From Bacteroidota bacterium (GTDB taxonomy: Bacteria > Bacteroidota > Bacteroidia > AKYH767-A > 2013-40CM-41-45): 64,000 nt of DNA. The notes under the pieces are model-generated. The model worked only from the letters and a program-made list of their open reading frames with translations. It searched no databases and was not told the DNA's origin. This document shows positions 41,970 through 60,243 of this stretch, piece after piece (position 1 is the stretch's first letter; the number at the start of each line of letters is the position of its first letter). The translations under genes were made by a program, and so were the position numbers. The DNA lies in contig JAPLDA010000085.1 in the NCBI GenBank assembly GCA_026391945.1, positions 8,320 to 72,319 on the forward strand, given 5' to 3'.

Positions 41970-42341
41970 TCAAGAAAGATGTCCGCTGATGAGTTTCGTC
42001 ATTTCGAACATGTTGACGGTTTTCTTTCCGCCAAAAACTTTTTTCAGGGCTTCGTCCGCATTGATGTTGCGTCTTTCTTTAGGATCCTGAAGATTGTTTT
42101 TCTTGATGTAGGCCCAAACTTTCTTCGTAACTTCTGTTCTTGGAAGAGGTTTTACGCCTACAATCGGCTGCAATGCTGTACCGATGTTTACTGGTTTCAT
42201 GAAAGCTGCATTGGGTTTTCTTTTTGTTTTTGGTTTTGCTGCTTTCTTTACTGCCTTCGCTTTTGCTTTAGGTTTAGCTTTCGCTTTAACTTTCGCTTTA
42301 GGCTTTGTAGCCTTTTTTGCTTTTGATTTTTTTGTTGCCAT
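41970..42341 (-). CDS. histone-H1-like Lys/Ala-rich N-terminus fused to a SWIB/MDM2 domain
   Basis: MATKKSKAKKATKPKAKVKAKAKPKAKAKAVKKAAKPKTKRK, then a SWIB core ...VKPLPRTEVTKKVWAYIKKNNLQDPKERRNINADEALKKVFGG... Confidence 0.8.
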   Translation of the reverse strand: MATKKSKAKKATKPKAKVKAKAKPKAKAKAVKKAAKPKTKRKPNAAFMKPVNIGTALQPIVGVKPLPRTEVTKKVWAYIKKNNLQDPKERRNINADEALKKVFGGKKTVNMFEMTKLISGHLS

Positions 42342-46438: not shown

Positions 46439-46541
46439 TGTTTTAATTTATTCGTACTGTTAGAAATCTTCAGCATGCCGCTGTCTTAAAGGGTTTCAAA
46501 AATAGAAAATGTTTTTATATTTCGTGTTGATGTCATAAAGT

Positions 46542-46592
46542 GTTTGAGAATTTGAGTGTTTGAGTGCGTAAGCGTTTGAGTGTTTAAGTGGT
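46542..46592. repeat. tandem (G)TTTGAGTG short repeats (4-5 copies)
   Basis: gtgtttgagaatttgagtgtttgagtgcgtaagcgtttgagtgtttaagtg. Confidence 0.7.
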
Positions 46593-46724
46593 AAGTTTTG
46601 GAGGGGAAAGGTACCTGTCAGGAACCCGGTTGTTGTCGTCAAGGCCACCAACCCCCCTTAAATACTTAAGCACATAAACACGTAAAAACTTCCTTGTACC
46701 CCTTGCAGGTTTACAAAAATAGTT

Positions 46725-51702: not shown

Positions 51703-52266
51703 TTACAGGTGGTTTTCAAGTTGTGAAATGTCAATGTCATTATCAATCAGGTATTGTTCCATGCCGGCGTTTTCATTCACTTCAGTGCTCCCGCTTTGAA
51801 GTTCCAGCGCTTCCACAAGAGTTGATTCATCCATTGTAGCAAGGTAAGAGGAGTTCTGAATATCATCACACGATAAATAGTTATCCGGAGATTCTACTTT
51901 TACCGGTTTCGATAAATACCGGATACCAGCTATGCAAAGAATGATTACCATGACAACTGCTAAAGCGTATTTGGGACGGAGTGAAATGGAAATCCATTCA
52001 CCGAAAATACTTTTTTTGTTTTTTGCATCAATGATCCGTTGTTGAACAAGAGAAGGCAGAGAATCAAAATAACCTTCCGGAACAGCGAACGGATTTTTTT
52101 TGTTCATCCGTTCCAGGTCAGGAAGCTCACTGATTTTATGTTGAATCTCTCCAGCAAGCGAATCAAAATAATTTTCCGGAACACGAAACGGATTTTCCTT
52201 TTTTATTTTGGAAAGTTCCGGTGCCAGTTTCTCCAGTTCGTCGTCGCTTAATAAATCGGGTTTCAT
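51703..52266 (-). CDS. putative anti-sigma factor (single-pass membrane protein)
   Basis: Sits immediately downstream of the ECF sigma. Central TM helix (ALAVVMVIILCIAGI). Duplicated NPFxVPExYFDSL motif in the cytoplasmic part. Confidence 0.55.
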   Translation of the reverse strand: MKPDLLSDDELEKLAPELSKIKKENPFRVPENYFDSLAGEIQHKISELPDLERMNKKNPFAVPEGYFDSLPSLVQQRIIDAKNKKSIFGEWISISLRPKYALAVVMVIILCIAGIRYLSKPVKVESPDNYLSCDDIQNSSYLATMDESTLVEALELQSGSTEVNENAGMEQYLIDNDIDISQLENHL

Positions 52267-56934: not shown

Positions 56935-58026
56935 ATGAAGTGTGGAATTGTCGGATTGCCCAATGTAGGGAAATCAACTTTGTTTAATTGCCTGAGCAAT
57001 GCCAAAGCGCAGGCAGCGAATTTTCCTTTTTGTACCATCGAGCCCAACCTGGGTGTGATTACCGTTCCGGATGAACGGCTGAACAAACTCGAAGATCTCG
57101 TGAAACCGCAGCGGGTGCAGCCTACAACGGTTGAGATTGTGGATATTGCCGGCCTCGTGAAGGGCGCCAGCAAAGGTGAGGGGTTGGGCAACCAGTTCCT
57201 GAGCAACATTCGTGAATGTGATGCCATCATCCATGTGATCCGTTGTTTCGACGATCCAAACGTGGTACACGTGGATGGCAGCGTGAATCCTGTCAGGGAC
57301 AAAGAGGTAATTGATACCGAACTGCAGTTGAAAGATCTGGATTCGGTCGATAAGAAAATCCAGCGTTTGGAGCGCGTGATAAAAAGCGGCGACAAAGATG
57401 CCGTGAAGGGAATCGAAGTCCTTAAAAAATACAAGGCTCATCTCGAATCGGGAAAACCTGCGCGGAGTGTTCAGGTAGATGAAAAGGACCAGGAATTCAT
57501 TGCAGATATTTTTTTGCTGACGGCAAAACCGGTCATGTACGTCTGCAACGTGGACGAAAAATCGGTTCTTACAGGAAACAAATATGTGGATGAACTGAAA
57601 GCTCTCGTGAAAGATGAAAAGGCAGAAGTGCTGATCATCGCTGCAGCCATCGAAGCGGATATCGCCATGCTCGACAGCTTTGATGACCGTGAAGCATTTC
57701 TCCATGACATCGGACTCACCGAGTCGGGCGTTACCAAACTGATCAAGGCGGCTTACCGTTTGCTGGATCTCTCCACGTATTTCACTGCGGGAGAAAAAGA
57801 AGTAAGGGCATGGACCATCCACCAGGGAATGACGGCTCCGCAAGCGGCAGGAGTGATCCATACGGATTTCGAAAAAGGATTTATCAAAGCCGAGGTGATC
57901 AGCTACAACGATTTTATTGCCTATGGCTCTGAAACAGCCTGCCGGGATGCCGGGAAACTGAATATCGAAGGCAAGGAATACGTGGTTCACGACGGCGATG
58001 TGATGCATTTCCGGTTCAATGTCTGA
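56935..58026 (+). CDS. ychF: redox-regulated ribosome-binding ATPase YchF
   Basis: GIVGLPNVGKSTLFN P-loop, ...VDIAGLVKGAS..., and a TGS-like C-terminus. Confidence 0.9.
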   Translation: MKCGIVGLPNVGKSTLFNCLSNAKAQAANFPFCTIEPNLGVITVPDERLNKLEDLVKPQRVQPTTVEIVDIAGLVKGASKGEGLGNQFLSNIRECDAIIHVIRCFDDPNVVHVDGSVNPVRDKEVIDTELQLKDLDSVDKKIQRLERVIKSGDKDAVKGIEVLKKYKAHLESGKPARSVQVDEKDQEFIADIFLLTAKPVMYVCNVDEKSVLTGNKYVDELKALVKDEKAEVLIIAAAIEADIAMLDSFDDREAFLHDIGLTESGVTKLIKAAYRLLDLSTYFTAGEKEVRAWTIHQGMTAPQAAGVIHTDFEKGFIKAEVISYNDFIAYGSETACRDAGKLNIEGKEYVVHDGDVMHFRFNV

Positions 58027-58215
58027 CGGAAGCCTTTTTTTTCAATAAATATTTTTCAATTTTTAATGATTAATATGTAATTTCGCTACGTCTTTTCAAT
58101 TTTTGAAGAGTTATTAAAACTGTAGCATACCTAAACGGGGTCGAAATAAAAATCATTCTTTGTGCGTCATTCACGAGATGAAAAAAGTTGAACACATTTT
58201 TTACAATCTACATCA

Positions 58216-59001
58216 ATGAGAATCAAGATTTCCTTTTTGAAAGTTCATGGGAGTAATGGTTTAGTCCCTCTTCATCATCAGAAAATTATTTCCGCATTCA
58301 TGGAAGAAGTGATCCGTGAACTTCCTATCCAGTCGGAGTTTTATAATTTTTCTTCTTTGAAGGGAACTTCGAAAGTTCAGAACGGGCAAATCCGTTTTCT
58401 TTCATCCAAAATATCGCTGGTGATTTCTGCTCCCGAGGCGGAATTTGCAGAGCAACTGGTGAAGAAAATATTTGACCGGCGACTGGTGAGTTTTGCCAAA
58501 CTCACCCTGGTTCCCAAAGCGTACCAGGTCATTCCTGACCCTGATTTTAAAACGGTCATGAAATATGTCTGCATTTCTCCGCTGGTTCCGCAACAACCTT
58601 TTATTGCGGAAGACATTGCTCCCGAGCCGCTGGATCCGCGCACCCAGGAAATTTCCGATTTGTTTTTCGAGACCATCCTCAACCGGATGGAACAGGCAGG
58701 GTTTACAGAAAAACAGCTCAATGAATTTGCGGAATTCGAAATCACTCCCGATCCGCAGTATATCGACCGTCTGGTTGCATCACAAAAAAAGTTTGCCCGC
58801 ATTTATAAAAACAATTTCAACCAGACTATTTTCGGATACCTGCTTCCTTTCACTCTTCATGCACATCCGCAGGTACATAAGTTCATCTGGGATTGCGGAA
58901 TGGGGTTGTTTACCACGCAAGGTTATGGTATGATTGACGTGGTCGGAAATGAAGCAGCAGCTGACCTTTCGGATACCCAGGCTCCTCCTGCTGAAAATTA
59001 A
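58216..59001 (+). CDS. cas6: Cas6-like RAMP-superfamily protein (solitary; no array or other cas genes in the window)
   Basis: N-terminus MRIKISFLKV...LVPLHHQKIISAFMEEVI parallels Cas6 MRf.i.l......vPynHqyylqgliY. C-terminal glycine-rich loop GMGLFTTQGYG matches GhGxxxxxGhG. Length of 261 aa fits a duplicated RRM/ferredoxin fold. Confidence 0.6.
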   Translation: MRIKISFLKVHGSNGLVPLHHQKIISAFMEEVIRELPIQSEFYNFSSLKGTSKVQNGQIRFLSSKISLVISAPEAEFAEQLVKKIFDRRLVSFAKLTLVPKAYQVIPDPDFKTVMKYVCISPLVPQQPFIAEDIAPEPLDPRTQEISDLFFETILNRMEQAGFTEKQLNEFAEFEITPDPQYIDRLVASQKKFARIYKNNFNQTIFGYLLPFTLHAHPQVHKFIWDCGMGLFTTQGYGMIDVVGNEAAADLSDTQAPPAEN

Positions 59002-59011
59002 CACGGGGAAA

Positions 59012-59557
59012 TTACTCGATATTTACTTTAAGGATTTTTTTCGCTTTGTATTCACCATTCAGGCTGACCACGAGAAGATAAACTCCTTTCTGGAGCCCTG
59101 CGAAAAAGTCAACATTTAAGTCGGTTACAGCCGTACCTTGCCCGGTACTTGAATTATCATAGAGGTACAGGTACCTGGAAAATTGTATCCTGTCAAATAC
59201 ATCAAAAAGATAAATGCTGATGCTGGTGGGAAGAAGACTTTGTTTGACGTACACATACAATAAATTATCGCAGCCGGTTTTGGAAAATGCACTGACGGGA
59301 TTCGGTGAAAAATCAAAATCGAAATTATCGCAGATGCCGGGATTATTCGGAGTTACTCCTACCAATCCACCCCAGTATTGAGCCGCACACTGGTTGCGGT
59401 ATGTTTTTCCATCGCATCCGCAAACGGGCTGGTAACAATCGTAGCATTGATGGTATGGATCGGCCCGGGTGCTGTCTTTACAGGTGATGTAGGTCTGCTG
59501 ACCTTTTCCAAAAAATGGAATCAATAAGAAAACAAGGAGAAGATATTTTTTCATCAT
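59012..59557 (-). CDS. Kazal-like domain protein with a T9SS-type C-terminal sorting domain
   Basis: Signal peptide MKKYLLLVFLLIPFFGKGQ. Core ...CYQPVCGCDGKTYRNQCAAQ... matches Kazal PVCGxDGxTYxNxC. C-terminal ~80 aa (…KGVYLLVVSLNGEYKAKKILKV) look like a T9SS CTD. Confidence 0.6.
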   Translation of the reverse strand: MMKKYLLLVFLLIPFFGKGQQTYITCKDSTRADPYHQCYDCYQPVCGCDGKTYRNQCAAQYWGGLVGVTPNNPGICDNFDFDFSPNPVSAFSKTGCDNLLYVYVKQSLLPTSISIYLFDVFDRIQFSRYLYLYDNSSTGQGTAVTDLNVDFFAGLQKGVYLLVVSLNGEYKAKKILKVNIE

Positions 59558-59652: not shown

Positions 59653-60243
59653 ATGAATTTCCTGGCTCATCTTTATCTTTCGGGCGACGATCACCAGTAC
59701 ATGATTGGTAATTTTATCGCTGATTTTGTGAAGGGGAATAAAAAGGATTTGTACCCGTTGAAGATCAAACAGGGAATCGAACTGCACCGGATGATTGATG
59801 ATTTTACGGATCATCATGAAATAACAGAACGAAGCAAAGCACGCCTGCGGCATAAGTATGGAAAATATTCAGGTGTGATTGTCGATTTGTATTATGATCA
59901 CTTCCTGGCGGCTAACTTTGGAGAGTTTCATAAAATGACGTTGCATGATTTTTCAAAAAGCGTCTATGAAATTTTAGAAAAGAACAGGGAAGTCCTCCCG
60001 GAACGAGTTCATCATTTTCTCCCCTTTATGATGGAGCGGAACTGGTTGCTCAACTATGCGAGCATCGAAGGAATAGGACGGGCTTTGACCGGTTTGTCAA
60101 CCCGCGTTTCATTTGAAAATAAAATGAATGAATCCACCGTTGACCTGCAGGAACAGTATGCATCATTTGAAAATGACTTCCGGGAGTTTTTTCCATACCT
60201 CGAATCGTTTGTGAAGGATCAGATTGTTCGGTTTGATTTGTAA
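59653..60243 (+). CDS. acpH: acyl carrier protein phosphodiesterase
   Basis: MNFLAHLYLSGDD...IGNFIADFVKG N-terminus typical of AcpH (DUF479). Confidence 0.75.
   Translation: MNFLAHLYLSGDDHQYMIGNFIADFVKGNKKDLYPLKIKQGIELHRMIDDFTDHHEITERSKARLRHKYGKYSGVIVDLYYDHFLAANFGEFHKMTLHDFSKSVYEILEKNREVLPERVHHFLPFMMERNWLLNYASIEGIGRALTGLSTRVSFENKMNESTVDLQEQYASFENDFREFFPYLESFVKDQIVRFDL

Follow-up and report, generated by a model that had tools for sequence, protein, structure and literature searches.

A solitary Cas6-family gene of Bacteroidota belongs to a conserved clade that lacks the canonical catalytic loop

The Cas6-like gene and the fold of its product

We analyzed a stretch of 64,000 nucleotides of Bacteroidota DNA (hereafter the window; assembly GCA_026391945.1, contig JAPLDA010000085.1, positions 8,320 to 72,319 of the forward strand) in which a first-pass annotation, made from the sequence alone, had singled out the gene at 58216-59001 as a Cas6-like gene standing alone. 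The annotation proposed that its product could be a domesticated RNA endonuclease acting on a substrate other than CRISPR RNA. Cas6 is the CRISPR RNA-processing nuclease of type I, III and IV CRISPR systems. The analysis places the product in the Cas6 family, within a separate clade that is encoded away from CRISPR arrays and cas genes at the loci inspected and whose members lack the loop that aligns with canonical Cas6's catalytic histidine. The gene and the elements of its product, all on the forward strand, are the following.

58216..59001, +, Cas6-like gene, 261 amino acids plus stop codon, ATG start, member of the CRISPR-independent Cas6 clade
58267..58281, +, P-L-H-H-Q motif at the start of helix alpha1, residues 18-22
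58315..58338, +, short alpha1-beta2 connector, the site lacking the canonical 'xxYLHxxG[FY]' loop, residues ~34-41
58351..58376, +, clade signature F-S-S-L-K-G-T-S-K, residues 45-53
58897..58929, +, G-rich loop GMGLFTTQGYG (GhGxxxxxGhG), residues 228-238
58951..58998, +, variable, acidic, low-confidence C-terminal tail, residues 246-261

The product is a true Cas6-family protein, beyond mere resemblance. Its translated open reading frame (ORF) is 261 residues long and begins exactly with the N-terminus that the first-pass annotation had quoted. It passes the curated cut-offs of both TIGR01877 (63.4 bits against a cut-off of 58.65) and PF01881 (54.8 bits against 23) and matches the PADLOC Cas6b profile PDLC01782 end to end (E=1.4e-27). 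The predicted model has a tandem ferredoxin fold, or double RNA recognition motif (RRM) fold, with a G-rich loop. Among its closest known counterparts are the Cas6 structures 3PKM/3I4H and 5YI6 and the non-catalytic 3QJJ and 3UFC, and a non-catalytic Cas6 is one of the two best structural matches. The G-rich loop GMGLFTTQGYG is present as annotated, ahead of the last strand, but it does not end the protein, as had been stated, because MIDVV and a tail come after it. In our alignment its glycines G228, G230, G236 and G238 are invariant in the clade, canonical Cas6 relatives included. The last 18 residues, after MIDVV, form a low-confidence tail in the predicted model (predicted local distance difference test, pLDDT, below 50), whose length and sequence differ between homologues. 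In GC content the gene does not differ from its surroundings.

Loss of the catalytic loop

The active site of Cas6 lies at helix alpha1 and the alpha1-beta2 loop, and its catalytic histidine is near-universal (PMC3902920). When the family profile was aligned to structures in the PDB, a 10-residue gap of the family fell opposite 'PAYAKRLHNY' of 5yi6. In a joint alignment (A3), the canonical relatives P0304 and P0307-P0315 carry at this place the loop 'YLH[DEN]xG[FY]', and the alpha1-beta2 'LHxxG' loop aligns with the catalytic histidine of canonical Cas6. This loop is absent from all 23 aligned sequences of the CRISPR-independent clade (hereafter the solo clade), those of the window's own clade and those of Cytophagales alike. 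We take the catalytic triad of PfCas6 to be Tyr31/His46/Lys52; on this assumption, the Tyr31-equivalent position is E30 in the window protein and is variable among members. The solo clade has neither the alpha1-beta2 catalytic histidine nor a conserved helix-alpha1 tyrosine, and has the Cas6 fold without catalytic histidine that marks non-catalytic Cas6 proteins (Cas6nc).

Many other motifs were kept or gained by the solo clade, namely an N-terminal MR, FS-x-[LIV]-K-G-x-x-K, ISPL, FSD, RME, PD-x-x-Y, KKFARIY and G-x-G-x5-G-[FY]-G-M-x-D. Since the loop is lost and these motifs are kept, the canonical catalytic element is gone and the hallmarks of RNA binding are retained. Within the F-S-S-L-K-G-T-S-K signature, S46, L48, K49, G50, T51 and K53 are invariant in the window's clade, and [LIV]-K-G is kept throughout the solo clade. 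In most of the solo clade the motif at the start of helix alpha1 is P-[FL]-[HY]-H-Q, in place of the canonical P-x-N-Y-Q. Arg22 and His23 lie in the active site of Thermus Cas6A and Cas6B (PMC3902920), and the P-L-H-H-Q motif may be the equivalent of that site. H215-A-H217 was considered as a new clade-wide catalytic pair and rejected, being invariant in the window's clade only and not kept in Cytophagales.

The deletion of the alpha1-beta2 loop in the whole clade and the variable Tyr31-equivalent position make cleavage activity uncertain, so the word endonuclease in the first-pass annotation is not supported. The protein is at least as likely to be a non-catalytic RNA binder of the Cas6nc kind as an endonuclease. 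The loss of the loop throughout the clade and the presence of a non-catalytic Cas6 among the two best structural matches make us lean slightly toward a non-catalytic protein or one with altered chemistry. An active endoribonuclease with a non-canonical site (for example H20/H21 with K49/K53) that cuts a specific cellular RNA, such as a precursor of ribosomal RNA (rRNA), transfer RNA (tRNA) or messenger RNA (mRNA), is a possible though clearly less likely explanation. Such an enzyme is compatible with the high conservation and with the P-[FL]-[HY]-H-Q motif, which is clade-specific and nearly universal in the clade. It would be in keeping with the plasticity of Cas6 active sites, a few Cas6 enzymes functioning without the histidine; the homologue PH0350 is non-catalytic (PMC3902920). 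It would have to do, however, without the histidine loop that its closest canonical relatives carry, without a conserved tyrosine position and without H215 and H217 in Cytophagales, and the resemblance to a non-catalytic structure speaks against it as well.

The solo clade thus differs from the PfCas6 type (Pyrococcus and Methanocaldococcus; 3PKM/3I4H, and 5YI6 'Cas6 1') in lacking the histidine loop and a conserved tyrosine position, and also in being vertically inherited in Bacteroidota and not encoded with cas genes or arrays at the inspected loci. Archaeal Cas6nc proteins occur in CRISPR-rich genomes and bind repeat RNA. With them (PH0350 of P. horikoshii, 3QJJ; the Cas6-related protein of P. 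furiosus, 3UFC) the solo clade shares only 19-20% identity and shows no close sequence relationship; unlike them, it is bacterial, conserved at the level of orders and has no array nearby. Because of this low identity and because the solo clade forms its own branch, its loop loss was probably independent of that of Cas6nc. Canonical bacterial Cas6 proteins such as P0304 belong to the same PF01881/PF21350 family and have the same G-rich loop at ~23% identity. In contrast to the solo clade, most of them (P0304 and P0307-P0315) carry the histidine loop, and they score at most 83 bits against the family profile where the solo clade scores at least 146.

A separate and constrained clade outside CRISPR-Cas loci

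When the family profile was run against 1.84 billion representative proteins, full-length matches scored from 400 down to 146 bits, and the next ones at most 83. In most of these lower-scoring proteins the alignment is shifted by ~15 residues beyond helix alpha1. A neighbour-joining tree also separated all solo sequences from canonical Cas6. Among 27 members sharing 50-92% identity, 47 alignment columns are invariant. Relative to the four closest orthologues, nonsynonymous divergence (dN) is 0.04-0.05 and synonymous divergence (dS) is saturated, at least 1.9 or not computable, and dN/dS is at most 0.03 where computable. Between the window and the related locus L001, identity is 92% for the Cas6-like protein, 91% for YchF, 80% for a transketolase subunit and 53% for the Kazal-like neighbour. 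The Cas6-like gene, being on a par with YchF, evolves like a housekeeping gene. Its ORF is intact in nearly all fetched loci, with a possible split in L076. The gene is therefore under strong purifying selection, which makes 'domesticated' a fair word for it, and this selection acts outside a CRISPR-cas locus, in a stable context of its own, as in an exapted Cas gene. A further solitary gene of different lineage, P0303 (L096, 10001-10819), encodes a canonical-looking Cas6 (PYNYQ, GFGEKNHFGFG) that is also without the histidine loop and adjoins a Ras/Arf-like GTPase gene. Since P0303 is solitary, loop-less and of a separate lineage, solo Cas6 proteins without the loop may have more than one origin.

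In a protein search we obtained 252 homologues, of which the 120 that were listed are ~170-440 residues long (mostly 245-280) and 50-100% identical, and all those with an organism name come from Bacteroidota. With the F-S-S-L-K-G-T-S-K signature as a pattern, and one genome per GTDB species, we retrieved 122 genomes that carry the clade gene, all of uncultured Bacteroidia. One of them is complete, that of Candidatus Pollutiaquabacter aromativorans (CP185379.1), for which the NCBI taxonomy has a separate order, and the window is most similar to this uncultured lineage. A translated search of plasmids revealed a full-length, 35%-identical homologue on a 602-kb replicon of Bernardetia sp., between genes of a methylmalonyl-CoA-mutase-family protein and an oxidoreductase and with no cas gene within 15 kb. 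An origin from phages or plasmids was rejected, as no phage matched and the one match, on a chromid, lies in a housekeeping context. Used as query, the Bernardetia protein led to 1389 homologues over Cytophagaceae, Cyclobacteriaceae and Bernardetiaceae, with cultured hosts such as Bernardetia litoralis, Cecembia rubra, Lunatimonas lonarensis, Shivajiella indica and Litoribacter populi. The gene is also carried by the complete genome of Cytophagaceae bacterium ABcell3 (CP133159.1) and by that of Bernardetia litoralis DSM 6794. Across five genomes of Cytophagales the genes are ordered (ychF), cas6 and a convergent gene for a plug protein of the type IX secretion system (T9SS), with no cas gene within 10 kb. 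ychF lies directly upstream in four of the five genomes (4/6 Cytophagales loci) and the plug gene downstream in all five (5/6 loci).

The absence of an array from the window, as first annotated, was confirmed by Tandem Repeats Finder, a direct-repeat search and a k-mer chain scan. The other 54 non-overlapping ORFs of at least 100 amino acids were searched with PADLOC and Pfam, and none matches a Cas family of PADLOC, in agreement with the reported lack of cas1, cas2 and effector genes. PADLOC gave only generic matches (mad2, BrxL, which is the Lon protease, DolB and IetA), and no Cas family is among the 25 listed of the 80 Pfam families matched, these being families of core metabolism and the envelope. 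The window genes are housekeeping genes such as those for PFK, LpxB, Lon, SurE and transketolase. The k-mer chain scan also detected no CRISPR array in 88 fetched related loci, which together with the window cover 1.38 Mb. Pfam-labelled calls showed no cas gene within 10 kb of three members of 92%, 72% and 51% identity, nor was one found among the called, annotated or recurrent neighbours at any locus inspected. The gene stands alone, as had been proposed, with no array in the window or the 88 loci and no cas gene there or in the Cytophagales loci.

The main rival to a role outside CRISPR is that of an ordinary CRISPR RNA-processing Cas6, lying apart and serving arrays elsewhere in trans. It is conceivable in that cas6 genes and arrays are capable of acting in trans, isolated cas loci being a common finding (PMC7145637, PMC5294841), that the equivalog cut-off of TIGR01877 is passed and that the array search covered loci, not whole genomes. 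We nevertheless consider it improbable. The gene keeps the same core-genome positions across orders, beside ychF, mutL-rhomboid or parE/parC. The discrete, loop-less and slow-evolving clade is unlike the patchy CRISPR systems, which readily undergo horizontal transfer, and no array was found in the flanks scanned. Moreover, the canonical relative that we checked, P0304, does lie in a cas operon of type III, at its end, with Cas10, four repeat-associated mysterious protein (RAMP) genes and a Csm6-like gene. The recovery of this operon indicates that the context method detects CRISPR-Cas where it is present.

Four k-mer chains flagged as CRISPR (in L007/L008, L021 and L057) were rejected as 21-nt, 96-nt and 8-nt tandem or REP-like repeats. 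In L007 (5742-5948) a 21-nt unit (TTTGATTTSGYTTAAACG-like) is repeated about ten times in tandem, within the spacer that separates an NTP-transferase gene from rpmE; these units could be iterated protein-binding sites. L021 (16632-16844) has 96-nt direct repeats with a 20-nt inverted repeat inside each, and L057 (16589-16849) an 8-nt tandem array of TAGTTTGT type. The window itself contains short tandem repeats, with units of 8/16/24 nt (AGTGTTTG) and of 12 nt (TTCGCTTTAGCT), as well as a 50-nt direct repeat whose copies lie 99 nt apart and are 80% identical (46538-46595, 42256-42306 and 52058-52206).

Neighbouring genes and the upstream spacer

The features flanking the Cas6-like gene in the window are the following.

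56935..58026, +, ychF, encoding a ribosome-associated Obg-like ATPase, recurrent neighbour on the upstream side (YchF-GTPase_C 1e-41, MMR_HSR1)
58027..58215, +, ychF-cas6 spacer with probable own promoter and leader, from the alignment of six orthologous spacers
58053-58064 and 58093-58104, +, two TTTTCAATTTTT copies, specific to the window and outside the conserved unit
59012..59557, -, convergent small gene of secreted type, its stop 10 nt from the cas6 stop, with weak Kazal and T9SS-tail signals
59653..60243, +, acpH, acyl carrier protein phosphodiesterase (Pfam ACP_PD 1.1e-70), for which we claim no functional link

The upstream neighbour is ychF, as first annotated (YchF-GTPase_C, E=1e-41). 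Downstream, the annotated Kazal/T9SS gene exists as a convergent gene, but its two signals fall below threshold (Kazal_1 19.9 against 21, Por_Secre_tail 15.9 against 23). This convergent partner is common to 45 related loci (cluster 2), and acpH is kept in the groups of 65-92% identity. Clustering of the neighbouring ORFs revealed three contexts: (1) an S4-domain gene, ychF, cas6, the convergent small Kazal-like gene and acpH; (2) a capsule operon, cas6, a convergent small gene, acpH, DUF167, parE and parC; and (3) mutL, two rhomboid genes, (an EEP-family gene), cas6 and a transglycosylase gene. The names of mutL, the rhomboid and EEP genes, the transglycosylase and several more were given by eye from the sequences. 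In the window's clade ychF lies directly upstream in the closest group (group A) and at the scattered loci L051, L052, L060, L079 and L086. Across 98 loci the gene is syntenic with ychF and other core genes, and the ychF-cas6 order is conserved between very distant relatives, in the window's clade and in Cytophagales. The simplest reading is that this adjacency is ancestral and was broken in some lineages. A single conserved partner gene was rejected, since neighbours shift between sub-clades and only the upstream ychF and the downstream convergent T9SS-related gene recur. In the window's clade this convergent gene is Kazal-like and has a weak signal for Por_Secre_tail; in Cytophagales it encodes the T9SS plug. 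Its stop codon usually lies 0-30 nt from that of the Cas6-like gene (window 59002-59011; L004 10772-10775; L007 7370/7371; L092 10823-10829), which leaves no room for a terminator. In the Cytophagales loci L090-L093, DUF3276, an AI-2E transporter, ychF and the cas6-like gene form a conserved block, with an ABC-F ATPase gene nearby. We take DUF3276 to have a Pur-alpha-like nucleic-acid-binding fold and ABC-F proteins to be ribosome-associated; if so, several Cytophagales neighbours would be associated with RNA or the ribosome, and a link to translation through ychF, ABC-F and DUF3276 is only a lead.

The Bacteroidetes promoter consensus is TAnnTTTG. By comparison with it, the spacer at 58027..58215 probably holds the gene's own promoter: a degenerate -7-like box lies at ~58155-58162, and both this box and a leader element GTTGAACACATTTTTTAC (58187-58204) are kept in the closest relatives. 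The spacer shows no excess of structure over shuffled sequence (z=+0.77), and Rfam searches of the window, at gathering score and at relaxed E-value, gave nothing above noise, as did Rfam at gathering score on six Cytophagales loci. Both copies of the 12-bp direct repeat TTTTCAATTTTT were found where they had been annotated, at 58053 and 58093. The window holds three copies against 0.34 expected, and the match extends to 22 nt at 82%. We rejected this repeat as a mini-array or binding site, as it is absent from all orthologous spacers of the related loci and the spacer lacks structure. We did not use as evidence TTGAAAAC, a repeat-handle-like sequence that the leaders of the closest relatives and of L007 contain. 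Compared with control upstream regions, only U-rich words were enriched as k-mers. In a subgroup of 48-51% identity, a sigma-54-like -24/-12 element TGGCAY-N5-TYG was observed 42-109 nt upstream of the ATG at 15 of 89 loci, all within this subgroup (L060, L067, L069, L070, L072, L074, L077, L078, L080, L082-L085, L087 and L088; background 0.0023 per 120 nt), and its presence suggests RpoN-dependent expression in this sub-clade.

The leaders of the loci of 67-77% identity share an architecture (L011-L014, L004, L015, L020, L022, L027, L028 and L033; columns 27-39 of alignment A4, ~45-60 nt upstream of the start codon). The -7 box TACTTTTG is directly followed by a 4-bp hairpin GCUN/NAGC with which the leader begins, then by a U-run and an invariant TTTTCA ~15 nt before the ATG. 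In the hairpin, 89% of cells are paired, three of the four pairs are changed on both sides and none of 500 shuffles reached the score. Its compensatory changes raise the alternative of an autoregulatory RNA-binding protein whose target is this small hairpin in its own mRNA leader, short hairpins being the ligands that Cas6 proteins typically bind (PMC8616872). We give this alternative little credence. The hairpin sequence differs by sub-clade (GCUA, CCGG, ACUA and UCAU) whereas the protein surface is highly conserved, no equivalent is visible in Cytophagales spacers, and a 5' hairpin may just stabilize the mRNA.

Likely function and meaning

We think it likely that the gene, no longer part of a CRISPR-Cas locus, encodes a protein of Cas6 fold exapted to bind a conserved cellular RNA unrelated to CRISPR. 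The clade is passed on vertically, as one chromosomal gene among housekeeping neighbours, in Cytophagales and in the uncultured Bacteroidia lineage. What it retains of Cas6 is the architecture for RNA binding, with two RRM domains, an invariant G-rich loop and basic strands that are conserved; what it has lost is the alpha1-beta2 loop, which in its canonical relatives provides the catalytic histidine. The data show family membership, fold, loop loss, solitary context, separateness of the clade, purifying selection and synteny, and from these RNA binding, a non-CRISPR substrate, the catalytic status and any link to YchF are inferred. Its most likely function would be sequence- or structure-specific binding of the cellular RNA, and cleavage would either have been lost, as in the Pyrococcus Cas6nc paralogues, or be carried out by different residues (H20/H21, K49/K53). 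That the gene is a decaying, functionless relic of a lost CRISPR-Cas system, as the lack of arrays and cas genes nearby might suggest, is effectively refuted by its nearly always intact ORF (L076 possibly split), the dN/dS of at most 0.03 where computable, the 47 columns invariant at 50% identity and the span of the clade over two orders.

Several points weigh against the exapted RNA-binding protein. Arrays or cas operons may lie beyond the scanned flanks, the unclustered ORFs of the 88 loci stood outside the hidden Markov model (HMM) scan, and all homologues carry the automatic name 'CRISPR-associated endoribonuclease Cas6'. As some Cas6 enzymes work without the histidine (PMC3902920), its loss is no proof that cleavage is lost. 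No RNA partner emerged from the spacers and flanks across the clade, whether as a shared structured element, an Rfam match or a repeat-like sequence. Co-function with YchF is a weak proposal because ychF is adjacent in only ~13 of the 88 loci of the window's clade and the gap of 90-290 nt contains promoter-like sequences. The repeated adjacency suggests, weakly, a link to translation or to ribosome-associated RNA. More speculatively, the protein might be a Cas6-derived housekeeping factor that binds or processes a conserved RNA (for instance the precursor of an rRNA or a tRNA, or one class of mRNA leaders) in the core RNA metabolism of Shine-Dalgarno-poor Bacteroidota (Cytophagales and relatives), with or alongside YchF; we judge this broader role rather unlikely. 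If true, this would be the first case of a Cas6 acting outside defence in an organism-wide role.

Cas proteins are known from other non-CRISPR contexts, namely solo-Cas4, the Cas1 of casposons and the Streptomyces Cascade-STAND module (PMC5704561, PMC6452270, PMC8730458). The solo Cas6 resembles these as a Cas-family protein recruited to a non-CRISPR context. It differs from them in being a single gene in core housekeeping neighbourhoods, whereas they are tied to mobile elements or other defence genes. A full-text literature search of incomplete coverage, so that an earlier account is possible, found no description of a conserved non-CRISPR Cas6 clade; the papers found cover solo Cas4, solo Cas1, isolated cas loci and a stand-alone Cas6 enzyme. 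Through the automatic 'Cas6' naming, CRISPR-Cas components are overcounted in Cytophagales and in related metagenome-assembled genomes. The existence of cultured hosts, among them Bernardetia litoralis, Cecembia rubra, Lunatimonas lonarensis and Litoribacter populi, makes the question directly testable. A large, slow-evolving Cas6 clade fixed in the core genome of entire Bacteroidota orders, with no arrays nearby and no catalytic loop, would be a clear case of Cas exaptation for cellular RNA.
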